Part shown: piece after piece, positions 33,440-45,795 of the stretch
Numbering within the stretch: the stretch's first letter is position 1
Layout of the letters: every line of letters begins with the position of its first letter
From: Gemmatimonadota bacterium
Lineage (GTDB): Bacteria; Gemmatimonadota; Gemmatimonadetes; Gemmatimonadales; GWC2-71-9
DNA length: 64,000 nucleotides
Assembly (NCBI GenBank): GCA_039588935.1
Contig: JBDGYW010000001.1
Span: forward strand, 13,659-77,658
Reading direction: 5' to 3'
Position numbers and translations under genes: made by a program
Notes under the pieces: generated by a model
Database searches by the model: none
What the model saw: the letters and a program-made list of their open reading frames with translations, nothing else
What the model was told of the DNA's origin: nothing

Positions 33440-33823
33440 CTAGCTCGTGATCTTCTCGAGCTTTCGCCCGTTGTTCTTGTCCTCGACGATCTTGACGCCG
33501 GGCACGAAGGTGAGCGCCTCGGCGACCTGGTCGTCTTGCTGGGTCGTGACCTGCACGATGCAGCCGACGCGCTCGATGTACATCGCCTTGGTCGACTTCA
33601 TCCACCTCTCGCGCCTCGACGAAGCCTTACAGAGCAATTGGAACATGTCGGTGTTTCCAACCGCCTTGATGTCGGGCACTTGGTCCCTCGCGTGCGCCTG
33701 GGTGCTGCTGTCGAGCGTCTTGGCGTGTTCGACGTCCTCGGCGCTCGCGAGCCGCTCGGCTTTCATGTGAGCCGCGCTGGCTTCTCGATCGTAGACTGGT
33801 TTTCCATTGTTCTCGTCACCCAT
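33440..33823 (-). CDS. Hypothetical protein (127 aa)
   Basis: ORF track 33440..33907 trimmed to ATG 33823 behind GAAAGGAACATC. Confidence 0.65.
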   Translation of the reverse strand: MGDENNGKPVYDREASAAHMKAERLASAEDVEHAKTLDSSTQAHARDQVPDIKAVGNTDMFQLLCKASSRRERWMKSTKAMYIERVGCIVQVTTQQDDQVAEALTFVPGVKIVEDKNNGRKLEKITS

Positions 33824-34085: not shown

Positions 34086-34288
34086 CAGCTCACTTCCTTG
34101 ATGTCAACGGTTATCGAGACCGCGACTTTGCGCGCACCCTCGCTGCAGATGCCGGGGTCGGTGAAGACAACACTCGATGGATCGAACTCGACGCCGGCAG
34201 ACTTCGCGCCGTCGATCACCTTGTCGGTTGTGTCTTCGGAGACGGGCACGTAGCCAGTGGCCCTGAATGTTCGTCGCTTGAAGCCCAT
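34085..34288 (-). CDS. Hypothetical protein (67 aa)
   Basis: ORF track. 1-nt overlaps on both sides. Confidence 0.6.
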   Translation of the reverse strand: MGFKRRTFRATGYVPVSEDTTDKVIDGAKSAGVEFDPSSVVFTDPGICSEGARKVAVSITVDIKEVS

Positions 34289-34911
34289 CAGTCTTCTCCT
34301 CGCTCCAACTCGTCCAGGTACGCATCGTCCAGGCCCTCGCCGCCGATGCTGGATTCCGACAGGAAGCTCCGCTCCTCGCCGTCCTGGAGCGAGTCGAGCT
34401 GGGAGTTATCGGGGGCATCGAGCCGCGGCCTGGGCGGTTCGCGCATCTCGCCCTGGATCTGCGGGGCCTGCGGCGCTTGCAGTGCGAGCTGGTGACCCTT
34501 CTTCTTGAGACCCTTGATCTCCTCCAGGGTCGGCAGGTCGGCCGGGTCGGGCAGCGCCAGGAGCATCTCGTCCTCCGCGCGCAGGCCCAGGCGCTGGTCT
34601 CGGGCATCGGCCGCGGCCGAGAGTTTCAGCCGCATGTCCGCGAAGTCCGGTATGTCCAGATCTTCGGCGGCCGGATGGTCGACCACGCGAGCGCCGAGGC
34701 ATTCTGGGCAGGAGGTCCCGAGTGAGCCCGCGTAGATCGAGCCGGCGCCGCCGCACTCGGGGCAGGGCATCTTCATGGTTTTCAGGTAGGCCAGACGCTC
34801 CCAGATGGTCTGCGCCTCATGCAGGGCGCGTAGCCGATCATCGACGTCGTCGAGTTCGGAAAAATCGTCCTCGTCAGGGTCCTCCCCTGGGGTTCGGTAC
34901 GGATGGTCCAT
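34288..34911 (-). CDS. Acidic protein with a DnaJ-type zinc finger (207 aa)
   Basis: ORF track 34288..35115 trimmed to ATG 34911 behind GGAGGACGA (34913-34921). CPECGGAGS...CPECLGARV. Confidence 0.7.
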   Translation of the reverse strand: MDHPYRTPGEDPDEDDFSELDDVDDRLRALHEAQTIWERLAYLKTMKMPCPECGGAGSIYAGSLGTSCPECLGARVVDHPAAEDLDIPDFADMRLKLSAAADARDQRLGLRAEDEMLLALPDPADLPTLEEIKGLKKKGHQLALQAPQAPQIQGEMREPPRPRLDAPDNSQLDSLQDGEERSFLSESSIGGEGLDDAYLDELERGED

Positions 34912-35293
34912 GTCGTCCTCCTCTCGGCCGCGGCCGGTCAGGAATGTGAGGCGGGCGAGCCCGCCAGGGAACTGTACGCGCGACAGCATCGAGCGCACGT
35001 TGAATGTCGGTAGCTCGCTTATGGCAGACATCGATGTCCTCGGCCAGGACGGCGAGCTTGCCCTGGGACGCGGTGACGGCCACGCTGTTCTCTTCGACCG
35101 TCGTCTGCATGTCAATGTCGAGTAAGTCCTTTAGAGTCGCAACTTCAGCCTCGAGCCGCCTGGCCTTAGCCTTCAGCTCTCGGATCTCACCAGTGTTGTA
35201 GCCGATCGCATAGCCGAGAAAGACCACGCCAAGCACGTACCAGATCCAGAGCGGTCGAAGATCGCGAGGCGGCCGGCCGGCCCATTCATCCAT
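34874..35293 (-). CDS. Membrane-anchored coiled-coil protein (139 aa)
   Basis: ORF track 34874..35326 trimmed to ATG 35293, which overlaps the upstream stop. TM segment LWIWYVLGVVFLGYAIGY followed by ELKAKARRLEAEVATLKDLL. Confidence 0.6.
   Translation of the reverse strand: MDEWAGRPPRDLRPLWIWYVLGVVFLGYAIGYNTGEIRELKAKARRLEAEVATLKDLLDIDMQTTVEENSVAVTASQGKLAVLAEDIDVCHKRATDIQRALDAVARTVPWRARPPHIPDRPRPRGGRHGPSVPNPRGGP
35130..35142. repeat. 13-bp dyad copy TTTAGAGTCGCAA
   Basis: Inside CDS 34874..35293 (coding strand GTT GCG ACT CTA AAG). Confidence 0.7.
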
Positions 35294-36017
35294 CGATGAG
35301 CCCCGTATTCCGCTCGTCCCAGGCATGACGGTCTAACTCTGGCAAGAGGTCGCGGACGTCGGCGTCGGTGTCGATGTCGTTCGTCCAGTCGGAAATAACG
35401 GTCATCAGCTCCTCGGCGTACTCATGCAGGGTCGATGGCTTCAGGCCAAGGAACTGCATCCAGATCCAGAGCAAATTCCGAAGATGCCCAGCCTGCCCCC
35501 TGTCGAACTGAAGTTTTCGACACTCCACTCGCATGAGCAGCTCGGCCGTCGTGTTCACGGCCGCTCCGGCCATGGTGTAGGCGAATAGCTCTCCCGTGGC
35601 TCGGTTGAGGTCGTCCGTGCCGAAGAACATAACGTCTTCGTCGCAAGATAGGATGGTGTCCATCGCCGCGCGCGAGTAGACGACATCCCCAAGAAGGAAA
35701 ATGTTCCGGTGGGCACTCCAGTGCGGGTCGGTCCCGTGCATGCCGTCAAGGATGCAGGACCCGGCGTAGCGCAGCGTGAGTAGCTCGCAGCCGTACTCCT
35801 GTTCGACTAGCGTTGAGAAATCCGGCCAGCCCACGACAGTTGGCTCCATCGTCATCGACGTGGGTGCGTCGACGGGCATGTACCAGTGCGACCTGACAAG
35901 ACCGATCGTCCTGGCGAGGATCGGCTGGCCGCCAACGCGCAGGAGCTGCTTCCGGAACTTCAAGCCGGTCATGCGGGATTGCATCCCCTGCGCCATGATG
36001 AATATTCTGGTGCTCAT
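35286..36017 (-). CDS. Nucleotidyltransferase (NTP_transferase / MobA-like fold)
   Basis: ORF track. N-terminus IFIMAQGMQSRMTGLKFRKQLLRVGGQPILARTI matches the G-x-G-x-R...K signature of sugar-nucleotidyl/cytidylyl-transferases. Confidence 0.7.
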   Translation of the reverse strand: MSTRIFIMAQGMQSRMTGLKFRKQLLRVGGQPILARTIGLVRSHWYMPVDAPTSMTMEPTVVGWPDFSTLVEQEYGCELLTLRYAGSCILDGMHGTDPHWSAHRNIFLLGDVVYSRAAMDTILSCDEDVMFFGTDDLNRATGELFAYTMAGAAVNTTAELLMRVECRKLQFDRGQAGHLRNLLWIWMQFLGLKPSTLHEYAEELMTVISDWTNDIDTDADVRDLLPELDRHAWDERNTGLIDG

Positions 36018-36322
36018 GTCTTCAGGATCACCCCTCGCAGGTCTTCCTGCTTCGGAAGGAAGCCGCGCAGCCAGCCGAAGTAGAGAATGTTGGAGTGCGC
36101 ACCGAAGCAGCGCTGGCGTAGTCTCCGCTGGGCAGTATCGAAGTCGGGGCCGCGCTCCTTACTGAACAGGCACTGGCAAGTCCCCATGTTGATTTGGGTC
36201 ATTGGGTACTCGCTGCTGATGTCGGCTCGCTTCAAGAGTCCCGTCCGGATGTCGATGTGACCGACGAGGTAGGCCGTAGCCCTATTCTTCTTCAGTCGGA
36301 GTCTCGTCCACGTCTTCCTCAT
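36014..36322 (-). CDS. Hypothetical protein (102 aa)
   Basis: ORF track 36014..36355 trimmed to ATG 36322 behind GGAGGACGA (36325-36333). Overlaps the end of the upstream gene by 41 nt. Confidence 0.5.
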   Translation of the reverse strand: MRKTWTRLRLKKNRATAYLVGHIDIRTGLLKRADISSEYPMTQINMGTCQCLFSKERGPDFDTAQRRLRQRCFGAHSNILYFGWLRGFLPKQEDLRGVILKT

Positions 36323-36575
36323 CGTCGTCCTCCCCGATCGAGAAGTCCTCGGCATCCATCTCCTTCATGGCGTTCTGCGCCTTGGAGATCGCGATCGCCG
36401 CAGTGTGGCAGAAAAGGAATGACGTATCAATCTCATCGGCGCGCACCGCCCCATCTGCGTCCTCCTCGGGATCGCAGAAGTATGACTGCACTAGCTCGAT
36501 CGAGGCCCGCGCATCCCGCAGGTTCACGTCGGCCGCCACCAGCCGCGCCATGGCTTCATCCCGTTTGGTCGTCAT
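36282..36575 (-). CDS. Hypothetical acidic protein (97 aa)
   Basis: ORF track. TGATG overlap with the upstream gene. Confidence 0.6.
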   Translation of the reverse strand: MTTKRDEAMARLVAADVNLRDARASIELVQSYFCDPEEDADGAVRADEIDTSFLFCHTAAIAISKAQNAMKEMDAEDFSIGEDDDEEDVDETPTEEE

Positions 36576-36802
36576 CAGTTTTTCCTCACTATCTCTGCCT
36601 CAAGGCCCCGTGTGGTGAGTGTGATCTTCACGTCCGCGCGCGACCCGGAGGGTAATTCGACAGTTGTGAATCGCAATTGGCAGCTGGTGCTGACCAGCTT
36701 GCCCTTCTTGAGTTGCCCGCACTGCCGCCGCCGACGCACGAAACTCCCGTCCACGCGGGACTCGATCACGTGCGTCGGCGCACCGCAGCGCGGGCAGAGC
36801 AC
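36575..36802 (-). CDS. NrdR-like zinc-ribbon protein without an ATP-cone (75 aa)
   Basis: ORF track. MLCPRCGAPTHVIESRVDGSFVRRRRQC...CQLRFTTVE parallels the NrdR N-terminus (CPxC..T.V.DSR......RRRR.C..C..RFTT.E). Confidence 0.6.
   Translation of the reverse strand: MLCPRCGAPTHVIESRVDGSFVRRRRQCGQLKKGKLVSTSCQLRFTTVELPSGSRADVKITLTTRGLEAEIVRKN
36664..36676. repeat. 13-bp dyad variant TTGTGAATCGCAA
   Basis: Inside CDS 36575..36802. Confidence 0.45.
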
Positions 36803-37159
36803 CTACTTGCCCCGGTCCTTGTTCATCTCAGCCCAGACCTCGCCGGCCTCGAACTCAGCCCGCTCCTCGTCGGTCTGGACGTGCGTGAATTCCCCCGCAT
36901 CGGCCTTGGATTTCCGCAGCCGAACCAGGACGGGTCGATCGACGGCGACGATCTGAAACCGCTTGCCACAGCCGATGTCCTCCTCGTACTCATTGCCGAA
37001 CTCGTCCTTCTTCGGGACCTTGCGCTCACAGGCGAAAACCGGCTTCTGGTTGTCAGGAATCAGCAGGTAATCGAAGGCCGTCAGGTCGTTCGGCACACCG
37101 CAGTGGGGGCACTTGGCCTTCGCCCACCGCATCCACTTGGTCCACTTCTCGGGCATCAC
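36803..37159 (-). CDS. Hypothetical zinc-ribbon protein (118 aa)
   Basis: ORF track. CPHCG...C...CGKRF. Confidence 0.65.
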   Translation of the reverse strand: MMPEKWTKWMRWAKAKCPHCGVPNDLTAFDYLLIPDNQKPVFACERKVPKKDEFGNEYEEDIGCGKRFQIVAVDRPVLVRLRKSKADAGEFTHVQTDEERAEFEAGEVWAEMNKDRGK

Positions 37160-37485
37160 TGAGGCCTTTGCGGAATGTCCCCGGGGTGTGCGAGGGTGAT
37201 GTTGCTCTGCTCCTGCTCCTTCATGATCCGCTGGACCGCGTCGGCCTCGAAGAACATGGAGACGGCCAGCAGCTGCTCCTTGGGGAGTCGCTGAGCGATT
37301 TGCTGCGGCACATCGGCCGGCGCGCTCCAGGTCAGCATCTCGTAGAGACCATCGAAGCCCTTGACCCTGCGCACAGCTCCCGCGTTGGCGCCCATGCCGG
37401 GCTGGAAGATGATCTGCATCTCGACACCATCGCCACCTCCTTCATCGAGAAGATGGTCGAGGTAGGCCTTCATGGGTGTGCTCAT
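37156..37485 (-). CDS. Hypothetical protein (109 aa)
   Basis: ORF track. ATGA overlaps on both sides. Confidence 0.65.
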   Translation of the reverse strand: MSTPMKAYLDHLLDEGGGDGVEMQIIFQPGMGANAGAVRRVKGFDGLYEMLTWSAPADVPQQIAQRLPKEQLLAVSMFFEADAVQRIMKEQEQSNITLAHPGDIPQRPQ

Positions 37486-37631
37486 TTCCGGTTCTCCTTT
37501 CGTGGCCGCAGATAGCGCTCTAGCGCTCGACAGACGATCTTGGTTCGAGTGACCCCCTCGGCCTCGGCCTTGCGGCTCAGGCTGGCCCAGAGTTTCTCAG
37601 GTATCAGGATGTGTGTGTTGTGGAGTTTCAC
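37482..37631 (-). CDS. Ribbon-helix-helix (CopG/Arc-like) protein (49 aa)
   Basis: Below the ORF-track cutoff. GTG 37631 (GTGA overlap with the GT1 stop) and stop TGA overlapping the next ATG. My translation is MKLHNTHILIPEKLWASLSRKAEAEGVTRTKIVCRALERYLRPRKENRK, a typical RHH pattern. Confidence 0.65.
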   Translation of the reverse strand: MKLHNTHILIPEKLWASLSRKAEAEGVTRTKIVCRALERYLRPRKENRK

Positions 37632-38815
37632 AAAGCCTCCAAAAGGCGTCGAAATTCTGCTCCGATGCTCGCGTACGAGTACCGTTTCAGGAAGTCGGCC
37701 CTGGCCTGGCAGACCCGGTCGGCGCCCCAGGTCTCATCGGTCGGATCGCGACCGGCTCGGGACTCGAAGAGATGCCGCATCCGTGTCTGGAGCATGGCCA
37801 GGTCGGGCTCTAGCCAGTGCTGCGTAGCATCGACTCCCTTCGGTGCGATCGATTCGATCGCTTTGAGCTTCATGACCTGGCCGCCCATCGCGATCGTTTT
37901 GGCCGAGATCGACGCAGTCCAGATCGCAGGCGTTCGGAAGGTGCGAACCAGGTGCTTCTGTCCCTTGTAACTCGACAAAAACTCCACCTGGCCGCCCTCG
38001 CCAGGCGCGATCACAGGCGCCCCGAGCGCGCAGGCCTCGAAGGCCCCCAGGCCGAAGCCCTCCCCGCGGGTGGCGGTGACGTAGCAATCGCAGGCCTGGT
38101 GAAACTCCAGCAGCTCCGCCTCGGTCAGCCAGCTGTCATCGAAGCTGACCGCTGGGAACTCTCTCAGGTTGGTCCCGAGCTTTAGAGCCTCAAGCGTCGC
38201 CTTGTCCACCTGGTTGGTTTTCAGGTAGAGCTCGACGTTCTCGCGAATGGTGAACTCCGTCAGATAGGCCTTGAGCAGACCCAGTAGATTTTTCCGCTCG
38301 CCCCAGGCGCCGATAGAGTAGAAGGCATAGGGCTCATCGCTGCCGTAATTCCAATTACGGGTCTCGCCCCAGAGCGGCCCGATCGCGTGCGGCAGCACTT
38401 CGACCCGGACGTCCATGTCGGCCTCGACGGTCGCCGCCTTCGCATACGCGCTGGGCATAAGGACCAGGTCGAAGACCTCGCTGAGCGGTCCGGCGAGGGT
38501 AGTCGGCAATCGGCTCGTCTCCCAGGTGGTCACGCAGATCTTCGCGCGGCACTCTGGCATGTAGAGCTGGATGTCACGGACATCGGACGGCATCGCGTGG
38601 ACGATCCAGATGTCATCCGCGGTGTCCTTCGGCCAGCCCGGGGTTGTGATCGCAGCGAGCGGTTCGTAATGCGGCTCCAGGTCGTCGGTATCGCACTCGA
38701 ACATCGGGATGATCCGGAGATCGACCCCGGCCTCGAGAAGGGACATGCAGTAGTCCTGGGCGGCGCGGGCAACACCGTTCGGCTGTGCGAAGGGGCAGAG
38801 GTAGTTAACTTTCAC
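37628..38815 (-). CDS. GT-B fold glycosyltransferase (GT1/GT4-like)
   Basis: ORF track. CYVTATRGEGFGLGAFEACALGAPVIAPGEGGQVEF is the EX7E-type C-terminal sugar-donor motif. Confidence 0.8.
   Translation of the reverse strand: MKVNYLCPFAQPNGVARAAQDYCMSLLEAGVDLRIIPMFECDTDDLEPHYEPLAAITTPGWPKDTADDIWIVHAMPSDVRDIQLYMPECRAKICVTTWETSRLPTTLAGPLSEVFDLVLMPSAYAKAATVEADMDVRVEVLPHAIGPLWGETRNWNYGSDEPYAFYSIGAWGERKNLLGLLKAYLTEFTIRENVELYLKTNQVDKATLEALKLGTNLREFPAVSFDDSWLTEAELLEFHQACDCYVTATRGEGFGLGAFEACALGAPVIAPGEGGQVEFLSSYKGQKHLVRTFRTPAIWTASISAKTIAMGGQVMKLKAIESIAPKGVDATQHWLEPDLAMLQTRMRHLFESRAGRDPTDETWGADRVCQARADFLKRYSYASIGAEFRRLLEAL
38181..38193. repeat. 13-bp dyad copy TTTAGAGCCTCAA
   Basis: Inside the GT1 CDS (coding strand CTT GAG GCT CTA AAG). 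Confidence 0.5.
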
Positions 38816-39024
38816 TTGACTTTCCTGAGTGGCAGACCGAAGAAGTGTCTGGCGTTGCGTAGGCGTTTGCGCTGGGCGAGGTCTTCCCTGCGATACCTGT
38901 TCAGTGTTTCAAGAAGCGCGTCCGCTCGACGTCGCGCCTCATCGCGTTCTCGCCGAACCCGCGCATTGTCTCGGGTTAGTGTCTTGATCATCGCCTCGTA
39001 GACGCTTCCGAGCACCTTCGCCAT
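38812..39024 (-). CDS. Hypothetical basic coiled-coil protein (70 aa)
   Basis: ORF track 38812..39108 trimmed to ATG 39024 (overlaps the upstream stop). Confidence 0.55.
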   Translation of the reverse strand: MAKVLGSVYEAMIKTLTRDNARVRRERDEARRRADALLETLNRYRREDLAQRKRLRNARHFFGLPLRKVK

Positions 39025-39203
39025 CAGGCATCTCCAGCTTCCCGAGCGTGGGTGTCTTCGCTGGCTTGTGAATCTGAGTCGCAAACCGTACCAGTTTCGA
39101 GGTGGCACTCATCACAGTAATCGAACGGGCACAGGCAGTCCGGGGACATGCGCCGATAGCAGCGTTTGCAGCGCCGCCAGCGCTTCTTTTGCCGACTAGG
39201 CAT
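39024..39203 (-). CDS. Small Cys-rich protein (59 aa)
   Basis: ORF track 39024..39215 (ATG 39203 or 39215). CKRC...CLCPFDYCDEC. Confidence 0.45.
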   Translation of the reverse strand: MPSRQKKRWRRCKRCYRRMSPDCLCPFDYCDECHLETGTVCDSDSQASEDTHAREAGDA

Positions 39204-39789
39204 CCCCGCGTCCATCGATCATCGCGAGGACTTCCGCAACATCCCCCGTCAATTCCTCGGGTGACAGCGCGAAGGCCGAGACCCCAAGTGCAAGTAACTC
39301 GATGGCATCCTTCTTGGCGGGCGTGATCACCGTGTCATACCGCTTTAGAGCCGCAATTTCAGCGTTGTTTGGGGCCTTTGGCGCGGTGCCAGTGATTGCG
39401 ATGTTGCGCAGGCCTTCAGTCCAGTAGTGGCCGAGGGCGTAGCCAGGCTCGTAGACGATCTCGTCGGCGTTCTCGATCGGCGGTGCGTTGGCTGGCAGGA
39501 AGTTCCCACGTTTCATCTGCCGACCAGTCTCTATGCCGGCCGGACAGCAGACCACATTCAGAGGTCGCTCGCTGACCGGCACCTGCATGCAGTCGCTGAC
39601 GGCCTCCCAGTGTTTCCAGGCCGGGTCGTGGGTCTGGAAGTGGGCGAACCCAATCGGGATCAGTCGAACCTCGAAGCCGCGGCGGAAGGCCACCAGGTAC
39701 TCGTAGCTGAGATCTGGCCACCAGCGGTCCTGGCTTTGCGAGCGAGGGCCGATCAGGGCGAAGTAGCGAACCATCGCAGACATGTACAT
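39196..39789 (-). CDS. Hypothetical protein (197 aa)
   Basis: ORF track. Three candidate ATGs lie within the ATGTACAT palindrome. No domain recognised. Confidence 0.65.
   Translation of the reverse strand: MYMSAMVRYFALIGPRSQSQDRWWPDLSYEYLVAFRRGFEVRLIPIGFAHFQTHDPAWKHWEAVSDCMQVPVSERPLNVVCCPAGIETGRQMKRGNFLPANAPPIENADEIVYEPGYALGHYWTEGLRNIAITGTAPKAPNNAEIAALKRYDTVITPAKKDAIELLALGVSAFALSPEELTGDVAEVLAMIDGRGDA
39344..39356. repeat. 13-bp dyad copy TTTAGAGCCGCAA
   Basis: Inside CDS 39196..39789 (coding strand ATT GCG GCT CTA AAG). Confidence 0.6.
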
Positions 39790-39801
39790 AGTATGTACAT
39801 G
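39781..39801. promoter_or_regulatory. AT-rich palindrome CATGTACAT-AGT-ATGTACATG
   Basis: Perfect 9-bp inverted repeat (two copies of the self-complementary ATGTACAT) at the junction between the kinase-like gene and 39196..39789. Confidence 0.6.
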
Positions 39802-39817
39802 CTGCCGATCGACCGCG

Positions 39818-40504
39818 TCAACCCCTTTCGAGTCGAAACAGGCGCTTCACGATAGGTTTCGCGACCTTCTCATCGACCCGTTCCATCAGGATCTCCGTCT
39901 GTAGATCCATCGCTACGTCGCTCGGACTCCCCTGGTAGGGATCTCGCTTCCCGGAGGCGACGTCCCTGGCGTACTTGAGCATGCCGATCCCGATTCGGAT
40001 GGGGAAGCTGGCATCGACGAGCGTTGCGCTTCCGTCATCGCCGATGATGTAGGAGTCCGTCTTGAACTCGGGCATCTTCCAGCCGGCCTTCTCCATGGCC
40101 GGCGCCATCTCTTCATAGTGAAGCTCCTGAAGGCGCTTTGTGTCCGCCCAGCCGCCTGGCCGGCCGACTGGACAGGTTCTGACGATGACGAGCTCGTCGA
40201 GGTCCAGTTCAACCGGCTCGGAGACCGGAAGGCCGATGCTGAAGGCTTCCTCAAGCCACTCGAACTCGCGCTGGAACGTACCGCGGCTGTGGTCGTCCTG
40301 GTAGTGAGCGACCTTGTAGGCCAGCGATTGCGCGTCGCAAAACACGCTGCCGGTCATACCGCTGCCGACCCACTCCAGCGGCGGCTCGGCGCCTACATTG
40401 AGCGCACGCTGAACCTCATCCTGGAGGCGGTCGGTGCCGACGTGGTACCTGACGTCCTTTGGGATCTCGTCCCAGTTCTCGACGATGTCGAGGACCGTCG
40501 TCAT
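39818..40504 (-). CDS. Protein-kinase-like fold protein (tentative, 228 aa)
   Basis: ORF track. Gly-rich loop VGSGMTGSVF followed by AYKV (Lys). Later LVDASF is DFG-like. No clear HRD loop, so the call is weak. Confidence 0.45.
   Translation of the reverse strand: MTTVLDIVENWDEIPKDVRYHVGTDRLQDEVQRALNVGAEPPLEWVGSGMTGSVFCDAQSLAYKVAHYQDDHSRGTFQREFEWLEEAFSIGLPVSEPVELDLDELVIVRTCPVGRPGGWADTKRLQELHYEEMAPAMEKAGWKMPEFKTDSYIIGDDGSATLVDASFPIRIGIGMLKYARDVASGKRDPYQGSPSDVAMDLQTEILMERVDEKVAKPIVKRLFRLERG
40328..40340. repeat. 13-bp dyad copy TTGCGCGTCGCAA
   Basis: Inside CDS 39818..40504. Confidence 0.5.
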
Positions 40505-40896
40505 CAGCAGCGGCGCGGTTTCGGTGCTCCGAAGTCCTGGCCGAAGCAGGAGACCACCAGCGAGGTCTTTGGCAGAGCGAAGCCCATGCCGGCCCAGACG
40601 GCCGCCCAGAAGATGGACCGGTTGCGCTTGTAGCCGTGGTAGAGCATCGCGAGCGCCGTGAGGCGGCGCCCGAGCGGAGAGGTGAAGAACGCAATCAGCT
40701 CCTCACCCTCGTAGCCGAGACCGTCGAGGTCGCCGACCTTCATGAGCGTGTCCACGCCGCGCACCGGCTGCGGCTCGTACTCGAGGTCGAGGCCCAGGCC
40801 GGGCAAGTCCGCTCCGTACTCCTGCTCTGCCATGCGCTTCCAGGTCTCCCCGGAGTAGATGTTCATCTGCTGTGGTTTGGTGAGCATGCCTGCCAT
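40504..40896 (-). CDS. Hypothetical protein (130 aa) with a C-terminal hydrophobic segment
   Basis: ORF track. 1-nt overlap with the downstream gene. Confidence 0.65.
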   Translation of the reverse strand: MAGMLTKPQQMNIYSGETWKRMAEQEYGADLPGLGLDLEYEPQPVRGVDTLMKVGDLDGLGYEGEELIAFFTSPLGRRLTALAMLYHGYKRNRSIFWAAVWAGMGFALPKTSLVVSCFGQDFGAPKPRRC

Positions 40897-40911
40897 CGTA
40901 TCCTCCCAGGC

Positions 40912-41316
40912 TCAGCGGGAGCGCTTCTTGCGCTTGAGGCTCTTCTTGCCGGCCCTCTTCTCCATCGGCGTTCCGCGAGTCACTCTGATATTCTTGACCC
41001 CGCGCCCCTTGAACATCTTGCGAAGTTCCTCCGCCCTCTTCTTGCTGTAGACAATCCATCCCTTCCTATTGCCGTACGGCGTCGTGTAGGTGATGGACCA
41101 GGCCTGGCTTCTGCTTGTCTTCGCAGGAGCGGTCTTTTTTCGGCCAGGGTTTTTCCGCTTCTTCTTGCCGGTCAGCTTGATGGCCAGGAGGCCAATACCG
41201 ACAAGAACGACCATCGGGAGCCAGCCCTTCAGCTTCTCGCCGATGCTGACTGCGCCGGTTGGCAGCGGTGCGGTGAGTTCGGTGCCGCGGTAGGATCCTG
41301 TGCTGTGGTAACTCAT
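40912..41316 (-). CDS. Single-pass membrane protein with a K/R-rich C-domain (134 aa)
   Basis: ORF track 40912..41442 trimmed to ATG 41316 behind GGAGAAGCGCACC. TM segment WLPMVVLVGIGLLAI followed by KLTGKKKRKNPGRKK. Confidence 0.6.
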   Translation of the reverse strand: MSYHSTGSYRGTELTAPLPTGAVSIGEKLKGWLPMVVLVGIGLLAIKLTGKKKRKNPGRKKTAPAKTSRSQAWSITYTTPYGNRKGWIVYSKKRAEELRKMFKGRGVKNIRVTRGTPMEKRAGKKSLKRKKRSR

Positions 41317-41384
41317 GGTGCGCTTCTCCGAAAAGGCTTGGGGTCGATAGCTGGTCTTGGGTGGGAGCTCCGTGAAGTACGGAC

Positions 41385-41397
41385 TTGCGGGTCGCAA
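41385..41397. promoter_or_regulatory. 13-bp dyad copy TTGCGGGTCGCAA
   Basis: In the 122-nt spacer upstream of ATG 41316 (it would be coding only if the long form of the ORF were real). Confidence 0.55.
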
Positions 41398-41438
41398 CCT
41401 CGTCGCGTCCCAGGCGTAGCCCGCGTAGTGTCGACGCC

Positions 41439-41654
41439 TCACTTCTTCCGCCTCCGTCTGCGGAAGCCGAGGTACTCCTTGAAGCCGAAGAAGGTAAAGA
41501 GCGGGATGGCGACGGTCGCCACCTGGGCGGCCGTCTTCCAGAACGTGCTCTTCGAGGCCTCGTATTCCGCCAGGTCTACTTCGCGCTTCCGCAGTGCGAT
41601 GTACTCACTGCGGAATTCGTCCTCGGAGAGACCCTGTGCTATGTACCCCATCAT
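41439..41654 (-). CDS. C-terminally anchored small membrane protein (71 aa)
   Basis: ORF track. N-terminus MMGYIAQG. TM segment AAQVATVAIPLFTFFGF followed by RRRRRKK. Confidence 0.6.
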   Translation of the reverse strand: MMGYIAQGLSEDEFRSEYIALRKREVDLAEYEASKSTFWKTAAQVATVAIPLFTFFGFKEYLGFRRRRRKK

Positions 41655-41671
41655 GCCCCATCGGCTGGCGG

Positions 41672-42037
41672 CTAGACGTCAATCATCTGGTTCCGCTCGA
41701 CCCTGACATGGAGGCCGCAGCCATCCCAGGTGCAGCGGAATTCCTCGATGTTGATCTCGCCGCCGGTTCGGTCATTGCGCTGAAAGCGGATGGCCTTCAT
41801 CTTGTCGGTGATCCGCAGTGCATTGCTGCAGCGCGGACAGTAGAGGTGGAGAAACAGCTCCCCATCGGCGGCGTAGACATCTGGAGTGGTGATCCGGTCG
41901 CCGTAGCGGATGCGCGGATGGCCGATCGCCGTCTTCGTGAGGTCGACTTCGGCCGACACGCCCCTGGCTCCGCTGCCGGCAGGATCCGGAACGTCACCCT
42001 TGATCTCGTAAAGGTCTTCTGGTCGTGAATTGGTCAT
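41672..42037 (-). CDS. Hypothetical zinc-ribbon protein (121 aa)
   Basis: ORF track. CPRC...CTWDGC. Confidence 0.65.
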   Translation of the reverse strand: MTNSRPEDLYEIKGDVPDPAGSGARGVSAEVDLTKTAIGHPRIRYGDRITTPDVYAADGELFLHLYCPRCSNALRITDKMKAIRFQRNDRTGGEINIEEFRCTWDGCGLHVRVERNQMIDV

Positions 42038-42046
42038 GCGACCAGT

Positions 42047-42361
42047 CTACTTCTTTTTCTTGCCCTTGAGCACGACGGCGATGATGACGAGGCCGCCGCC
42101 GATGACGATGTAGGGCAGGTACTTCTCGACTGCCGAGGGAGGCCGGTAGGCGACGCCAGGCTGCTGGCCCTTCTGCGCCAGGCCGGCGCCGTAGGCTTTC
42201 GCGCCGCCCGTCAGAACGTCCTTGATGAAGCCGAAGACACCACTGTCTGTCTTCGGGGCCGGCGTAGCGGTTGCCGCTGGCTTCTTCTCTTCCGGCTTGG
42301 GCAGGTACTCATCCCAAAAGGCGCCGAGGCCATTGGTCGGGGTTCCGGTGAAGTAGGGCAT
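42047..42361 (-). CDS. C-terminally anchored membrane protein (104 aa)
   Basis: ORF track 42047..42637 trimmed to ATG 42361 behind AGGAGAACCC. TM segment YIVIGGGLVIIAVVL followed by KGKKKK. Confidence 0.65.
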   Translation of the reverse strand: MPYFTGTPTNGLGAFWDEYLPKPEEKKPAATATPAPKTDSGVFGFIKDVLTGGAKAYGAGLAQKGQQPGVAYRPPSAVEKYLPYIVIGGGLVIIAVVLKGKKKK

Positions 42362-42369
42362 GGGTTCTC

Positions 42370-42948
42370 CTATTTTGCTGCGGGCTTCTTGCGCCGCTTC
42401 TTCCAGATGATGAGCCCGGCCAGGGCAGCAGCACCCAGGCCTCCGAGAATGAGTAGTTTTCTGCGCTTGCGACTCGCAACTAGGGCTTGCTCCTGGGCGA
42501 TCTGCGCCTGTTCGGCCGCGCTGGCCTGGGCGGCGAGCTCCGCGATGACCTTGTCGATCTCGGAAAACGGGATCCCCTGCTTTCGACCGTCGATGCAGAC
42601 CTCGAGCGACTGGCCCGTGTAGCCTCGGTCGGCGCACAGCTTGGCGATGGCGAAGTCGTCGTAGGGCCTACCCGCTCCCACCCAGGAGATGCACTCCTTC
42701 CAGGCCTCCCCGCGGAAGGCGGAGCACTTCTTCCGCTCAGCGTCCGCAGGCGTCTCCCTAACGGTCACAGCGCCGTTGACCGGCCCGCACGGATTCTGCC
42801 CGTCAGCCCGCTTCCGGGCGCAGTAGCCTGCCTTACCGGCGGCTGGCGGGCACCAGACCTTGCCGGCCCCACAGAGTGTCGCGGCGATGCGCTCTGGGGT
42901 CATCACCGTGAATCCGGCTTTCGTTGCGCCTGTTCCCACGTATCCCAT
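42370..42948 (-). CDS. Cys-rich, C-terminally anchored membrane protein (192 aa)
   Basis: ORF track 42370..43128 trimmed to ATG 42948. N-terminus MGYVGTGA. 10 Cys. TM segment LLILGGLGAAALAGLIIW followed by KKRRKK. Confidence 0.7.
   Translation of the reverse strand: MGYVGTGATKAGFTVMTPERIAATLCGAGKVWCPPAAGKAGYCARKRADGQNPCGPVNGAVTVRETPADAERKKCSAFRGEAWKECISWVGAGRPYDDFAIAKLCADRGYTGQSLEVCIDGRKQGIPFSEIDKVIAELAAQASAAEQAQIAQEQALVASRKRRKLLILGGLGAAALAGLIIWKKRRKKPAAK
42467..42479. repeat. 13-bp dyad, perfect palindrome TTGCGACTCGCAA
   Basis: Inside CDS 42370..42948 (coding strand GTT GCG AGT CGC AAG). Confidence 0.75.
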
Positions 42949-42950
42949 GA

Positions 42951-43538
42951 CTAGCTCCCCCAGATGGCGTAGGCCGCGGCGAGGGCCGCTGCGCCAATAA
43001 GCGCTATAGTGCCAACCCCCGTTTTCTTCTTCGGCGGTGCGGCCGGCTCGATTTCCGCCTCGTCGAGAAGCTCGTCGACGATCTCCTGCGGTGATTTTGC
43101 CCCGGCCCAGCTCTCGTCGGTCCACCACTGGCTGGCTCCCGCGCCTGATGGGTCGATGACCGGCTGCGGCGGAGGGGCCACGGGCGGAGGAGGCGGAGGG
43201 GAAGGCGCGGTCGTGAACCGCGGAGGCTGGCTGATTATCCTTGGCTCCTTGGTAACGAGCGGCTCCTTCGTCGGCCGGATCGGCGCCGCCTCGAGGACGG
43301 TGATTCCACCCTTGTCCCTGGACACCTCGGGCGAGGGGAAGAGCGTTCTCGTACCAGTCGGGAGCGGGGGGGGCTTCTCCAGCACGAGGGCGCCACCTCC
43401 ATAGATGGGTCGAGTGACCCTGGTCGGGGAGACGATCCTCGGGCTCTTCTTGACGACACGCCCAGTGAGTTCCGTTTCCTGCGCACCGGTCCCGAAGGTC
43501 CGCGACCGCGTGATAGCACCTGTTGCGACGTAGCCCAT
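42951..43538 (-). CDS. Pro-rich, C-terminally anchored membrane protein (195 aa)
   Basis: ORF track. N-terminus MGYVATGA. SPPPPPPVAPPPQP linker. TM segment VGTIALIGAAALAAAYAIW. Confidence 0.7.
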   Translation of the reverse strand: MGYVATGAITRSRTFGTGAQETELTGRVVKKSPRIVSPTRVTRPIYGGGALVLEKPPPLPTGTRTLFPSPEVSRDKGGITVLEAAPIRPTKEPLVTKEPRIISQPPRFTTAPSPPPPPPVAPPPQPVIDPSGAGASQWWTDESWAGAKSPQEIVDELLDEAEIEPAAPPKKKTGVGTIALIGAAALAAAYAIWGS

Positions 43539-43546
43539 GTCGGCTC

Positions 43547-44176
43547 CTAGGATTCGAGTTTCTTGGCTACCTTCTTGAGCAGCGGTGGTCCGAGGATGAA
43601 GACAGCGACAGCGACAGCGCCCCAGATGAGGAGCTTCTTCACGCCGCTACCAACGACATCAGTCGCCAGCGCGATTCCGCCGGCAATGTTCTCCGGCAGC
43701 TCCGCGACGGACTCGATGATCGCTTCGCGCGCCATCGTCCACTTCCCCTGGACCATGCCGGCAGCATTGCGAGCCATCGCGTATCGATTCGCAGTCTCCC
43801 AGAACTCCGTGTTCCAGGGATACTCTTCGTTCATCGCAGACTTGGCCGCGAGCAGCGCCGGTGCGGTCATTGGGTTTTGCCGCCAGAGCTTCACGAACGG
43901 CAGTTGAGACTCGAAAGCCATCCGCGCCGATTTATAGGAGTGGGTCTCGACAAACTTCTTTGGACAGTCGAGATTCCTGTCGAGCTGCATCTCACGAACG
44001 TTGCACGCGAGAGATGCGTAGTTCGAGGTCTGCGCAAGAAAGGCAGCTCCAAACATGTAGACATCCCGCCAGGTCGTCTTCGGGATCGCCTTCCCGCGTG
44101 GGCCGCGCGTGCCGCCGCGCAGTCCGACGTAGCGACGCTTCTCACGGAGGAAGACATCTAGTGCGTTGAAGGCCAT
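43547..44176 (-). CDS. C-terminally anchored membrane protein (209 aa)
   Basis: ORF track. TM segment LLIWGAVAVAVFILGPPLL followed by KKVAKK. Confidence 0.7.
   Translation of the reverse strand: MAFNALDVFLREKRRYVGLRGGTRGPRGKAIPKTTWRDVYMFGAAFLAQTSNYASLACNVREMQLDRNLDCPKKFVETHSYKSARMAFESQLPFVKLWRQNPMTAPALLAAKSAMNEEYPWNTEFWETANRYAMARNAAGMVQGKWTMAREAIIESVAELPENIAGGIALATDVVGSGVKKLLIWGAVAVAVFILGPPLLKKVAKKLES
43904..43916. repeat. 13-bp dyad copy TTGAGACTCGAAA
   Basis: Inside CDS 43547..44176. Confidence 0.55.
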
Positions 44177-44194
44177 CGCGATCCCCTTCCGGCG

Positions 44195-45162: not shown

Positions 45163-45369
45163 AATGGACCCCCCTGAGTCGCCCGCTGGCCTGCCTCGCG
45201 AGGCTTGTCGGTCGGACTCTCCGGTTGTTTCCGACCGCGGCAATCACGCCGTGAGCTGGCGGAAAGGAGTAAGCGCCAGCTGGGACTCGTTTGGTTGGCT
45301 CTGCAGACCATGGGTTTTGATGCCCCCCTCATGACTAGGCCAGCGGGCCACGCAGAGGGGTCCGTTGTG

Positions 45370-45522: not shown

Positions 45523-45524
45523 CG

Positions 45525-45789: not shown

Positions 45790-45795
45790 GCGGTG

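Follow-up and report, generated by a model that had tools for sequence, protein, structure and literature searches.

Gene organization of the glycosyltransferase locus

The locus described here lies within a 64-kb stretch of DNA (hereafter the window), which together with the remaining ~16.6 kb makes up an element of ~80.6 kb in total, and it was compared with at least seven related metagenomic virus contigs of ~70-100 kb (free contigs of 69-104 kb, given L numbers below). A preliminary description of the window had gathered six ORFs, all on the minus strand, into a single coupled island. All six were recovered where they had been placed, with coding-type GC3 values of 0.70-0.81, and the calls of a GT4 glycosyltransferase (GT) with an EX7E motif, an NrdR-type zinc ribbon and a ribbon-helix-helix (RHH) protein all exceeded curated cut-offs, whereas the nucleotidyltransferase (NTase) and kinase-like calls drew on weaker evidence but were consistent. 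Our analysis resolves the region into a real sugar-transfer cassette, made up of a half-enzyme, a full GT, a small DNA-binding regulator and a conserved control site, with the kinase-like and NTase genes as optional extras beside it. A single six-gene island did not survive this comparison, as the latter two genes are subclade-specific and the kinase-like gene is located upstream of the control site.

The full enzyme is a GT4-type GT-B glycosyltransferase (37628..38815, minus strand), which matched Pfam Glycos_transf_1 at 34.6 bits (cut-off 26.4) and the PHROG 2170 glycosyltransferase family at 7.7e-21, and for which 158 homologs were retrieved. Across 43 GT homologs the EX7E motif (E252...E260) and K175 were invariant, and the protein is a clade-wide core enzyme of the retaining type with its EX7E intact. 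The first gene of the cassette encodes the 197-aa protein H (39196..39789, minus strand), which had been listed as an unknown and for which we obtained zero matches across all family libraries searched, Pfam and PHROG included. Aligned to the GT family using hhalign, H scored Prob 90.6% (E 1.3e-6) with five sequences and Prob 96.4% (E 1.1e-9) with seven, H 1-169 corresponding to GT 1-141. These profile alignments identify H as half a GT: a free-standing paralog of the acceptor-side Rossmann domain found at the N terminus of the neighboring GT family, with no EX7E donor domain. AlphaFold models of H and of the kinase-like protein (pLDDT 46) were too poor for use.

Between H and the GT lies a variable slot that, depending on the relative, is empty or holds two small ORFs, a methyltransferase (Methyltransf_24 in L005) or a GT2 (L004). 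The window has two small ORFs in this position, both coupled and both overlooked in the original list of members. One is a 70-aa Arg-rich coiled-coil ORF (38812..39024, minus strand) that is among the gene calls of the public contig; its stop and the start of the GT overlap, and it gave no informative family match. The other, a possible 63-aa Cys-rich (zinc-finger-like) ORF (39024..39215, minus strand), was read from the sequence; it is absent from the public contig's gene calls and had no Pfam match, it ends in an overlap with the start of the ORF that follows, and it fills what appeared to be a gap.

A control site and a candidate regulator

Following the GT is a 49-aa RHH protein (37482..37631, minus strand), which matched RHH_1 at 20.8 bits (cut-off 20.5) and a PHROG Arc-like repressor at 9e-6. 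The stop/start overlaps that had been described between the GT and RHH genes and between RHH and the next gene are real, as judged from the ORF coordinates. The broader claim of one coupled block holds for these overlaps and not throughout, because the 28-nt gap between the kinase-like and 197-aa genes is a conserved promoter/operator-like site (39782..39821, minus strand). There, a TTGACG box (39821-39816) overlaps the kinase-like stop codon, and an 18-nt spacer separates the box from TACATA. The site also includes two ATGTACAT palindromes (39800-39793 and 39789-39782) with a TGTACA core and centres 11 bp apart, the second starting at the H start codon. The window contains four copies of ATGTACAT vs. 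0.03 expected. The same layout was observed in L003, L007 and L013 where the corresponding gene starts, and a reduced form in L005 and L004. Local autoregulation, as suggested earlier, is favored by the tandem palindromes heading the same sub-operon and by the RHH gene, translationally coupled to the GT, being kept directly after it in at least six relatives (L002, L003, L004, L005, L007 and L013). The RHH protein is the candidate for regulator of the cassette, and its dimer would bind the tandem palindromes and set cassette expression. As RNA, the site folds as a hairpin (-18.3 kcal/mol, z -4.7) and could work in this form instead of as an operator.

Genes flanking the cassette

Downstream of RHH, all on the minus strand, we found a conserved 109-aa protein (37156..37485) that is coupled to RHH, is 44% identical in L003 and 31% in L007, and had no family matches; a zinc-ribbon-like 118-aa protein (36803..37159, 50% identity in L003) with a weak DUF7577 match (5e-4); a stand-alone NrdR-type zinc ribbon of 75 aa (36575..36802), which scored 36.6 bits against Zn_ribbon_NrdR (cut-off 27.2) and is 84% identical in L003 and 56% in L007; and two small ORFs (36014..36575), one 97-aa and acidic (36282-36575), the other of 102-113 aa (36014-36355), with 58% and 32% identity in L003 and no family matches. 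The NrdR-type protein indeed lacks an ATP-cone, since its 75 aa leave no space for one, and no NrdR-box-like site was present in the window.

The NTase (35286..36017, minus strand) is MobA/IspD-like (GT-A-fold), with an NTP_transf_3 match (E 1.3e-4, 22.6 bits) under the cut-off of 27, and matches of 1e-4 to 1e-3 to the same family recurred in three independent NTase homologs. The G-x-G-x-R signature ascribed to it is not clean: the motif reads AQGMQSRM...RKQLL, with two canonical glycines replaced by Gln, as is also the case in L003. The top PDB match was CTP:inositol-1-P cytidylyltransferase (2xme, E 0.024), aligned via a GDxVYS motif. In Streptomyces phages, NTase homologs belong to GT-NTase-FkbM methyltransferase cassettes with which the tail/lysis operon ends. 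The NTase is a subclade-specific accessory gene, whose product probably makes the activated donor.

The kinase-like protein (39818..40504, minus strand), with a Gly loop and Lys, had zero matches across all family libraries searched. Its family comprises 277 cluster representatives, and among 108 members G47, G49, E80 and P145 were invariant and K64, E146, K148, S151 and D164 nearly so. These motifs correspond one by one to those of PKA, with a non-significant hhalign score (E 0.13), and one of the 108 members gave a weak APH match (E 0.0025), so that a kinase fold here falls short of statistical support. The domain mostly occurs inside 600-1500-aa multidomain proteins, beside a polyvalent-type InPase or with ART-PolyVal, and its fusions extend to GNAT, transglutaminase and ParB_N domains. 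This agrees with the truncated protein-kinase domain described for polyvalent proteins (PMC5512222), and the protein is probably a stand-alone domain of that type. It looks like a separate effector because of its position upstream of the control site and its family's fusions to InPase, ART-PolyVal, GNAT and transglutaminase domains; as such it would act outside the glycosylation pathway, most likely phosphorylating host targets.

Conservation of the cassette in related viruses

The core order of TTGAC box and tandem TGTACA palindromes, H, variable slot, GT4 and ~50-aa RHH is conserved, and an H homolog is the first cassette gene in L003, L007, L005, L004, L013 and L017. In the relatives compared, the cassette always comes after, at the distal end of, a conserved, colinear 40-56 kb module that is rich in membrane proteins and is presumably the virion module, a label that we infer, since none of its proteins matched in Pfam, PHROGs or PDB. 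The element as a whole had no Walker-A motif and no recognisable gene for a terminase, portal or capsid protein. A 193-aa protein of the module shows 67-81% identity in most relatives, falling to 45-49% in the two that are farthest removed, in genomes where the GT is just ~35% identical.

In the closest subclade, L003 has the kinase-like gene, NTase and GT in the same order as the window. The database places the kinase-like homolog P0122 (62% identity) and the H homolog P0124 on one 16,002-nt contig, and the GT homolog P0002 (65% identity) on a contig likewise of 16,002 nt. L004-L007, L013 and L017 all retain the GT, and in their examined stretches neither the kinase-like nor the NTase gene was found. 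This pattern bears on a linear salvage pathway of the AmgK/MurU, NahK/GlmU or LicA/LicC type, in which the kinase-like protein would phosphorylate a free sugar, the NTase would make an NDP-sugar from the sugar-1-P and the GT would use it, the three enzymes forming one functional unit whichever the acceptor. The shared gene order in the window and L003 fits such a unit, as do the single APH (small-molecule kinase) match and the GNAT and pyrophosphatase fusions, which are also compatible with sugar-nucleotide chemistry, and there is a precedent in Shewanella phage Thanatos, where cytosine pentosylation involves a GT-phosphotransferase fusion and a sugar-1-P nucleotidyltransferase (PMC12838424). 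However, the conserved control site stands between the kinase-like gene and the cassette, the P0004 contig carries H, GT, RHH and NTase with no ~228-aa gene at the kinase position, and the kinase-like family is mostly found in polyvalent-type proteins and not in sugar operons, all of which makes this pathway unlikely.

Proposed function of the cassette

Sugar modification of phage DNA, one of three targets offered in the preliminary description, would have the same triad make an activated sugar and attach it to phage bases to evade restriction/CRISPR, as in T4, RB69, Thanatos and 5mYOX-associated GT clusters. Diverse GT-A and GT-B enzymes are known to glycosylate 5hmC in phage DNA (bioRxiv 10.1101/2023.12.21.572611). 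Among the element's own genes are those for a ParB_N protein and a C5 cytosine methylase, and in L005 the third gene past the GT is of the dCTP-deaminase family. To our knowledge, all DNA glycosylation pathways require a source of 5-hydroxymethylpyrimidine, and DNA glycosylation is disfavored here because a thymidylate-synthase-like hydroxymethylase and a TET/JBP dioxygenase are missing from both the window and the remaining ~16.6 kb. Moreover, the methylase gene is ~30 kb from the GT instead of adjoining it, most relatives that keep the GT lack the kinase-like and NTase genes, the GT profile did not match T4 beta-GT among solved structures, and the slot enzymes of the relatives (GT2, O-methyltransferase-type) resemble glycan tailoring. 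We therefore regard DNA as a highly improbable target.

A cytoplasmic target had been argued from the absence of TM helices. The enzymes do appear soluble and phage-encoded, with no Wzx/Wzy/Gtr-type partner, and a Kyte-Doolittle scan of the four enzyme-like proteins gave no hydrophobic TM-like segment. Nevertheless, the argument fails, because GT4 enzymes commonly have no TM helices yet use membrane-bound acceptors (PimA, WaaG, WbaZ-type). A takeover or anti-defense role, in which the GT would glycosylate a host protein, signalling nucleotide or metabolite and not a structural component, draws on the Pfam 'GT4-conflict' family, matched by many GT family members and weakly by the window GT, on the adjoining conflict-type kinase domain and on the existence of GT4 enzymes acting on small molecules (MshA, BshA). 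The window match is nonetheless limited to the generic EX7E region (23.4 bits vs. a cut-off of 26), the variable tailoring slot (GT2, methyltransferase) suggests the building of an oligosaccharide and not single capping, and no recognisable defense or anti-defense partner gene was found, leaving such a role distinctly unlikely.

The integrase and the promoter-like site of the cassette also fit a conversion module expressed by a lysogen, which would glycosylate a host envelope polymer (LPS core/O-antigen, teichoic acid, EPS or glycolipid) from the cytoplasmic face, alter the receptor surface and keep out superinfecting phages. Besides its tyrosine integrase, the element encodes cI-like HTH repressors, the cassette comes with a sigma-70-like TTGAC box of its own and with a small repressor-type protein dedicated to it, and GT4 enzymes of the WbaZ, EpsE and glycolipid-forming types are among the PDB and NCBIfam neighbors of the GT; in L006, sulfotransferase, epimerase and pyruvyl-transferase genes are close to the GT. 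Against this, the cassette is positionally fixed across lineages in which the GT is ~35% identical, unlike a sporadic moron, and it lies ~37 kb from the integrase within a long co-directional array that has no terminator signal above chance. Flippase, polymerase, GtrA/B and any other membrane partner are all missing, and the relatives are free contigs without flanking host DNA. We consider lysogenic conversion rather unlikely.

Glycosylation of virion proteins, another of the targets first offered, best fits the gene context, and our leading reading, which falls somewhat short of an even chance, is a self-contained cassette for virion glycoconjugate synthesis with the kinase-like protein outside the pathway. 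The virion target we infer solely from gene position and phyletic pattern; GT4 enzymes often use lipid-linked or small-molecule acceptors. The GT4 would move a nucleotide-activated sugar to an acceptor made by the virus, either in the cytoplasm or on the inner side of the membrane, the likeliest acceptors being virion or virion-membrane proteins. H, itself non-catalytic, would recognise the acceptor or act as a partner subunit, much like GtfB for GtfA or Alg14 for Alg13, and the slot enzyme would elaborate the glycan. In the subclade only, the MobA/IspD-like NTase ~1.6 kb downstream would probably provide a dedicated activated donor. B736L of chlorovirus (3oy2, E 2.6e-9), the nearest PDB match of the GT, comes from a virus group that glycosylates its own capsid, the chlorovirus capsid protein being modified by virus-encoded enzymes (PMC4691112), and virion glycosylation is an established phenomenon in phages (Freeman et al. 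2023, as cited in PMC12619734). From the sequence comparisons, the cassette is a clade-wide gene set of uncharacterised ~70-100 kb viruses, which may glycosylate their own virions.

A conserved cassette led by a half-glycosyltransferase

The six open reading frames (ORFs) that the preliminary description had placed in the island, encoding a nucleotidyltransferase-like protein (35286-36017), an NrdR-like zinc ribbon (36575-36802), a ribbon-helix-helix protein (37482-37631), a glycosyltransferase (37628-38815), a 197-aa protein (39196-39789) and a kinase-like protein (39818-40504), all lie on the minus strand at those coordinates. Their codon-position GC bias is that of true coding sequence (the sequence is 62% GC), the stop/start overlaps claimed between them are genuine, and a hydropathy scan gave no TM-like segment in any of the four enzyme-like proteins. 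Three amendments were needed, one of which concerns the nucleotidyltransferase signature (below). The gene list lacked two additional coupled small ORFs between the 197-aa gene and the glycosyltransferase gene and, within what had been taken for one coupled block, the kinase-like and 197-aa genes are separated by a 28-nt spacer that constitutes a conserved regulatory site.

The glycosyltransferase (hereafter GT, 395 aa) had been recognized by its EX7E motif, and it exceeds the cut-offs of both PF00534 (Glycos_transf_1; 34.6 bits vs. 26.4) and PF13692 (30.9 bits vs. 27), with a PHROG glycosyltransferase match at 7.7e-21. The EX7E pair (E252 and E260, in the C-terminal domain) is invariant across 43 homologs, and GT is predicted to be an ordinary GT4-type GT-B enzyme. 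We retrieved at least 158 homologs, many of them on contigs of 68-95 kb, while the IMG/VR scan gave no match to GT; the best solved relative of the family is the chlorovirus protein B736L (NY-2A).

Comparison with loci from related metagenomic virus contigs (numbered with L) revealed the same cassette order in every relative with readable DNA: a homolog of the 197-aa protein (H), a variable slot, the GT4 enzyme and a ribbon-helix-helix protein (RHH) of ~50 aa, usually coupled to one another by overlapping stop and start codons. In the window the order is H (197 aa), a 63-aa Cys-rich ORF, a 70-aa coiled coil, GT and a 49-aa RHH. The slot is empty in L003 (H of 208 aa, GT, and a 50-aa RHH that starts at TTG and is uncalled in the public record), in the contig of the database protein P0004 (H of 208 aa, GT, RHH of 50 aa), in L007 (H of 186 aa, GT, RHH of 50 aa) and in L013 (H, GT, RHH), and H is likewise followed directly by GT in L017, at the end of that locus. 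It holds a Methyltransf_24 gene in L005 (H of 190 aa, RHH of 51 aa) and a second glycosyltransferase, of the GT2 type, in L004 (H of 159 aa, RHH of 53 aa). Such contents (nothing, a methyltransferase or a second glycosyltransferase) are, judged by their predicted functions, what would be expected of glycan tailoring. A more distant phage, L006, is organized differently, its GT lying among sulfotransferase, epimerase/dehydratase and pyruvyl-transferase genes. Beside the integrase gene of the window we also observed a Methyltransf_24 gene (1387-2181, minus strand) whose product is 30% identical to the slot methyltransferase of L005, so this genome may encode the same tailoring enzyme outside the cassette.

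The 197-aa protein H had been listed as an unknown, a label that no longer applies, since its profile can be aligned with that of the GT family next to it, over the N-terminal Rossmann domain. Using hhalign, the H family matched the GT family with a probability of 90.6% (E 1.3e-6) when five sequences were used and 96.4% (E 1.1e-9) with seven, H 1-169 being aligned to GT 1-141. Corresponding motifs are VRY...Y-YL-A and VRY...HDYL-AL, NIAITGT and VA-TTWET, and YD-VVTP and FD-VIVPS (H and GT, respectively). The shorter H proteins of L005 (190 aa) and L004 (159 aa) matched the H profile at 97.4% (E 1e-11) and 90.4% (E 1.4e-6). H lacks EX7E because it ends where the donor-binding domain of GT would start, and invariant residues of the GT N-domain, H73 and the WET of TTWET, are changed in it (CCP and ITGT instead). 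On these grounds H is predicted to be a conserved, non-catalytic paralog of the acceptor-side domain of GT. Searches of H against Pfam, PHROGs and NCBIfam gave no match, and phmmer/hmmsearch against PDB sequences gave nothing significant. The alignment was shallow (three sequences), the AlphaFold2 model had a pLDDT of 46 and was unusable, and Foldseek with this model returned only matches at E > 0.1, which we disregarded.

A promoter- and operator-like site precedes H

The regulatory site at the head of the cassette (39782-39821, minus strand) reads TTGACG, 15 nt, ATGTACAT, ACT and ATGTACATG, where TTGACG shares bases with the stop codon of the kinase-like gene and H starts at the final ATG. 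Its counterparts keep this layout: TTGACT, 14 nt, ATGTACAT, AGC and ATGTACATG in L003; TTGACG, 15 nt, ATGTACAA, GG and ATGTACATG in L007; and TTGACG, 11 nt, TGTACAT, CACCT, TGTACAT, C and ATG in L013, with reduced versions in L005 and L004. MYM (ATG TAC ATG) is the start of every H protein from L005 and the closer relatives, which suggests that the nucleotide motif itself is what is conserved. The window contains four copies of ATGTACAT, where 0.03 would be expected. A scan for generic sigma-70 and terminator consensus sequences gave nothing above chance.

In classic RHH operators, such as those of Arc, CopG and MetJ, two short palindromes spaced by about one helical turn overlap a promoter-like element. 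The RHH protein at the end of the cassette, announced in the preliminary description, reaches the RHH_1 cut-off (20.8 bits vs. 20.5) and matches an Arc-like repressor PHROG (9e-6), and an alignment of five orthologs gives the pattern HNxHxLIP...LW...A..EG.S.T..V..AL..YL. It shares with the Arc/CopG/MetJ-type repressors a length of ~50 aa and the beta-strand-helix-helix pattern, and the candidate site shares with their operators two palindromes about one helical turn apart, here over a promoter and start codon. By this analogy the RHH protein is the obvious candidate binder of the tandem palindromes. A difference from these operators is that the motif also stands at a few other promoter-like sites (L010 6060; L005 11819). 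We observed these further copies of ATGTACAT at L010 6060-6067 and L005 11819-11826, 3' of TTGAAA or TTGACT boxes and just upstream of genes, in addition to two intragenic copies in the window (20720-20727 and 33576-33583); the motif may therefore mark a small regulon or promoter class, or belong to the -10 region. The palindromic site could also act as an RNA hairpin rather than as an operator, as its transcript is predicted to fold at -18.3 kcal/mol (z -4.7) in a structure that would bury the start codon of H.

Neighboring genes are separable from the cassette

Downstream of the cassette, the 75-aa zinc ribbon (36575-36802, minus strand) passes the NrdR-type zinc-ribbon model (36.6 bits vs. 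a cut-off of 27.2) and shares with the N-terminal zinc ribbon of NrdR the RRRR-x-C and RFTT-x-E signatures. As had been proposed, it differs from NrdR in lacking the ATP-cone, for which it is too short. Its second zinc knuckle carries a 12-residue insert, and NrdR-box-like palindromes were found nowhere in the window; for these three reasons we do not regard it as an NrdR orthologue. Its identity to its counterparts, 84% in L003 and 56% in L007, is unusually high for a small protein. Further small zinc-ribbon-like proteins cluster in the same part of the array (36803-37159, 39024-39215 and 41672-42037), and a protein at 34288-35115 (minus strand; 60% identical in L003 and 48% in L007) has acidic tails and a zinc-finger segment of the DnaJ type (CxxCxGxG).

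The 243-aa protein described as a nucleotidyltransferase (NTase; 35286-36017, minus strand) scores 22.6 bits with NTP_transf_3, below the cut-off of 27, and this family is matched at 1e-4 to 1e-3 in three independent homologs (the window, L003 and gp32 of Streptomyces phage Lizz). The G-x-G-x-R signature that had been reported is not clean, however: the loop reads AQGMQSRM...RKQLL, in which Arg and Lys are retained and two Gly are replaced by Gln. In the family profile search the best PDB matches were all nucleotidyltransferases, headed by CTP:inositol-1-phosphate cytidylyltransferase (IPCT) at E 0.024, while phmmer/hmmsearch of the protein itself against PDB sequences gave nothing significant and NCBIfam added only weak cytidylyltransferase N-terminal matches. 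A conserved LLGDVxYS segment aligns to GDHVYS of IPCT, and the conserved C-terminal DxTxDIDTxxD motif resembles the DIDTPEDL ending typical of MobA/LicC-type enzymes. A GT-A-fold nucleotidyltransferase of the MobA/IspD/IPCT-like type is therefore a plausible prediction. Within the clade the gene is confined to the closest relatives (L003 and the P0004 contig), and its only cultured-phage homologs are in Streptomyces phages of ~69 kb, where a translationally coupled cassette of GT, NTase and FkbM-methyltransferase ends the tail/lysis operon. The apparent 170-nt gap after the NTase gene (~35120-35293, minus strand) contains a coupled small ORF, uncalled in the public contig, whose ATG at 35293 overlaps the NTase stop codon and whose product has one TM helix and a coiled coil; a weak "terminator" after the NTase gene was rejected as it sits inside this ORF.

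Upstream of the control site, the kinase-like protein (228 aa; 39818-40504, minus strand) belongs to a family of 277 cluster representatives in which G47, G49, E80 and P145 are invariant and K64, E146, K148, S151 and D164 nearly so. Pfam, PHROGs and NCBIfam gave no match to it, phmmer/hmmsearch against PDB sequences gave nothing significant, and its AlphaFold2 model, from a shallow alignment of two sequences, was unusable (pLDDT 46). The hhalign match of the family to PKA is not significant (E 0.13), with an alignment that is in register at the Gly loop, AxK, alpha-C Glu, hinge, catalytic loop and DFG; an APH match was found in one of 108 members (0.0025). Other members are multidomain proteins of 600-1500 aa with GNAT (three members), ART-PolyVal, transglutaminase-like (Transglut_core3) or ParB_N domains, and in the database protein P0264 the kinase-like domain lies directly C-terminal to a polyvalent-type InPase (2.2e-33).

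A truncated protein-kinase domain has been described in phage polyvalent proteins by Iyer et al. 2017 (PMC5512222), in which the C-terminal subdomain is missing and an insert lies between the conserved His and Asp; the domain also occurs in stand-alone versions and was proposed to phosphorylate host proteins. Compared by the published description, our family resembles that domain in the short core devoid of the C-terminal subdomain, the conserved Gly loop, Lys, Glu and Asp, the long insert from the conserved His to the catalytic-loop Asp, and both fusions to InPase, ART-PolyVal and GNAT and stand-alone versions. It differs in its catalytic loop, which is PEFKxDS instead of HRDxKxxN, and in having Glu where the conserved Gln of the last N-lobe strand was reported.

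A sugar salvage pathway running from the kinase through NTase to GT was the reading that we favored at first, and we now consider it quite improbable given the phyletic pattern of the genes, the control site that intervenes and the polyvalent-type fusions. The kinase-like gene is carried by L003 and a second close relative (P0122, 62% identical); it was not found in the examined stretches of L004-L007 and L013, nor at the equivalent position in the P0004 contig. In view of these fusions, its location upstream of the cassette control site and its patchy presence, we take the kinase-like protein to be a putative effector of its own, a role as sugar kinase being the less likely reading.

The carrier is an ~80 kb temperate element with unrecognizable structural genes

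An identical copy of the region is present on contigs of run SRR34092662, the longest listed contig with GT being 80,611 nt, and no nucleotide-level relative of the island came up in a megablast search of 50,697 phage records. With L010 and L011, two overlapping loci that reach beyond the window at either end, the whole element of ~80.6 kb could be inspected. Its genes encode a tyrosine integrase, cI-like HTH proteins, ParB_N/RepB, a C5 DNA methylase, Dam, a beta-clamp-like protein, an SLT domain protein, two M23 peptidases and DUF5131, GP88 and HNH proteins. The integrase gene (1-527, minus strand) continues beyond the left edge of the window, as seen in L011, and the combination of a Phage_integrase gene with HTH repressors is that of a temperate carrier. 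Terminase, portal, HK97-type capsid and FtsK/HerA ATPase families were not detected across the ~80.6 kb, nor did a six-frame scan of the window, L010 and L011 (open frames of at least 90 aa, both strands) find a Walker-A motif; in phage Lizz, our positive control, that scan did pick up the helicase P-loop.

A conjugative element, as the integrase, ParB, SLT protein, M23 peptidases and many TM proteins might suggest, was rejected as the leading view because VirB4, VirD4, relaxase, FtsK-type ATPase and Walker-A motifs are absent and the unit size of ~80 kb recurs.

Upstream of the island lies a module (40504-56785, minus strand) that is colinear in all relatives and that we infer to be the virion module. 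Across 40.5-56 kb it has no Pfam or PHROG match at E <= 1e-3, and sub-threshold matches to PG_binding_1 and transglutaminase-like families only. At least nine of its small proteins finish with one hydrophobic helix and then a Lys/Arg tail (among them 40912-41442, 41439-41654, 42047-42637, 42370-43128, 43547-44176, 44809-45243, 51918-52850 and 52834-53823, all on the minus strand), and it also encodes beta-rich proteins of 193, 231 and 451 aa. Its appearance is closer to that of a virion module from a membrane-containing virus than from a tailed phage. No gene of the clade is nearly as conserved as that of the 193-aa beta-rich protein (47988-48569, minus strand), which has an identity of 67-81% in most relatives and 45-49% in L014 and L020, whereas GT reaches only ~35% in those genomes. 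We regard this protein as a candidate for the major capsid protein; it has no match in PDB sequences, PHROGs or cultured phages, and its relatives are on IMG/VR contigs of 55-104 kb.

Further proteins have features of their own. A 509-aa protein (48682-50211, minus strand; identity 36-43% in most relatives and 26% in L014) has a Lys/Arg/Ala/Thr-rich, histone-H1-like N-terminus of ~300 aa, then hydrophobic segments and an acidic C-terminus, and could serve to condense DNA while anchored in a membrane. Second in conservation within the module is the gene of a 176-aa protein (53832-54362, minus strand; 50-62% in four relatives and 32-37% in two more distant ones) with a Cys...His...Asp arrangement reminiscent of transglutaminase-like proteases, which is probably the source of the weak Transglut_core match. 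The 451-aa protein contains two internal repeats of ~110 aa. A C-terminal domain of ~190 aa is shared by four proteins (18814-20076, 22136-23518 and 23576-24958 on the plus strand and 46538-47893 on the minus strand), which may be alternative receptor-binding proteins; this domain is also found at the end of a 1015-aa protein of L006, a phage that is otherwise different, and again in L015 and L017-L019.

Five relatives (L016-L020), retrieved when integrated copies were looked for, are contigs of 69-89 kb, the size of a whole virus, within MAG bins from four unrelated phyla (assigned to Gemmatimonadota, Kiloniellales, Candidatus Peribacteria and Myxococcales), a placement that is probably a binning artefact and not host information. 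The carrier, being ~80 kb, temperate and rich in membrane proteins, with neither recognizable packaging or capsid genes nor a P-loop, is potentially more novel than the island itself.

What the cassette may glycosylate

We tentatively favor synthesis of a virion glycoconjugate, a reading that we hold to be somewhat short of even odds. A virion target is favored by the position of the cassette at the distal end of the conserved module, by its clade-wide retention combined with lineage-specific tailoring, by the chlorovirus enzyme being the best solved relative of GT, by the analogous late-operon cassettes in Streptomyces phages, and by the precedent of glycosylated mycobacteriophage capsids and tail tubes. 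The genes are those that virion glycosylation would call for, one or more soluble glycosyltransferases encoded by the virus, with tailoring enzymes that vary by lineage. Glycosylation of chlorovirus capsids by virus-encoded enzymes has been reviewed (PMC4691112), and the glycosylated mycobacteriophage capsids and tail tubes are those of Freeman et al. 2023, as cited in PMC12619734.

Sugar modification of the phage's own DNA, in which GT would decorate its bases, was among the functions first suggested for the island, and the grouping of NTase, kinase and GT has a real precedent in phage Thanatos, which encodes a GT-phosphotransferase fusion, a UDP-xylose pyrophosphorylase and a dCMP hydroxymethyltransferase (PMC12838424). 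Many phage glycosyltransferases decorate 5hmC made by a C5-MTase and a 5mYOX (bioRxiv 10.1101/2023.12.21.572611). No TS-like dCMP/dUMP hydroxymethylase or TET/JBP 5mYOX was found among the Pfam matches of the 109 window ORFs, nor a hydroxymethylase or TET/JBP protein in the flanking 16.6 kb (precomputed Pfam and hmmscan, E 0.1). To our knowledge, every DNA sugar-modification pathway of these kinds depends on a source of hydroxymethylpyrimidine, and inspection of the entire element detected none; the C5 DNA_methylase gene, moreover, is not adjacent to GT but lies ~30 kb away in the replication arm. We therefore regard this function as very unlikely.

Lysogenic conversion, in which the cassette would modify the host envelope, is in our view unlikely, if less so than DNA modification. 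It would fit the integrase and the promoter-like site that the cassette has of its own, but the cassette is a set of core genes whose position is fixed, unlike a sporadic moron; it lies within a long co-directional array and comes with no membrane partners. The absence of flippase- and polymerase-type O-antigen partners had been noted earlier, and indeed no GtrA, GtrB or GtrC/Wzy/acetyltransferase Pfam families occur within the window; partners of the GtrABC/Oac/Wzy type are not to be found in the cassette either, whose proteins have no TM segments.

Taken further, the favored virion target leads to a picture that we offer as a long shot: the cassette would be an autonomous virion-glycosylation system of an undescribed group of bacterial viruses that are temperate, ~80 kb in size, non-tailed and membrane-containing (possibly pleomorphic) and devoid of terminase, portal, HK97 capsid and Walker-A ATPase, in which H would serve as an acceptor adaptor that steers GT to envelope or capsid proteins, and the RHH protein and its TGTACA operator would time glycan synthesis.

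Relation to known systems and implications

Virus-encoded virion glycosylation has been recognized in phages only recently and affects immune recognition and host range. Its known examples, such as the mycobacteriophage Che8-type GT operons and the chlorovirus capsid-glycan glycosyltransferases, are the systems closest to the cassette, and they share with it soluble virus-encoded glycosyltransferases that work with no flippase or polymerase, and tailoring enzymes (methyltransferase, extra glycosyltransferases) that vary between lineages. They differ in that the cassette is known from its genes alone and its carrier has no recognizable tailed-phage structural genes. We know of no such system in which a stand-alone N-domain paralog always leads the operon, in which tailoring is confined to a single swap-in slot, or in which a coupled RHH gene is combined with a conserved tandem-palindrome site.

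A GT-B enzyme divided over two polypeptides is known from Alg13/Alg14 and Cps14F/Cps14G, and a catalytic glycosyltransferase with a non-catalytic, GT-B-like acceptor-binding partner from GtfA/GtfB. In all of these, as in the cassette, an acceptor-side GT-B half (or a lookalike of one) is encoded beside the catalytic enzyme, and by analogy H would resemble in function the GtfB-type non-catalytic partners or the split halves Alg14 and Cps14F. The catalytic GT is here full length, however, with its own N-domain, and H provides an additional, paralogous N-domain instead of a missing half. With DNA hypermodification clusters (T4 alpha/beta-GT, those associated with 5mYOX/C5-MT, and Thanatos/RB69 pentosylation) the element has in common a phage-encoded GT-B enzyme and, in this subclade and as in Thanatos, a nucleotidyltransferase and a kinase-like gene near GT; it differs from them in having no hydroxymethylase or TET/JBP protein, in a GT that is not adjacent to the C5-MTase, and in NTase and kinase-like genes that are not conserved along with GT.

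The triad of NTase, kinase and GT, which can be read as a DNA-modification signature, thus consists here of juxtaposed, separable modules, and a putative stand-alone kinase domain of the polyvalent type is set apart from the glycosylation genes. The analysis also flags a group of ~80 kb viruses whose structural and packaging genes are completely unrecognizable. What it defines is a compact, clade-wide cassette of a control site, a non-catalytic half-GT, a variable tailoring slot, a GT4 enzyme and an RHH protein, which offers a testable minimal system for how a soluble glycosyltransferase may be targeted to a viral acceptor and for how glycan diversity may be generated by the swapping of one slot gene.
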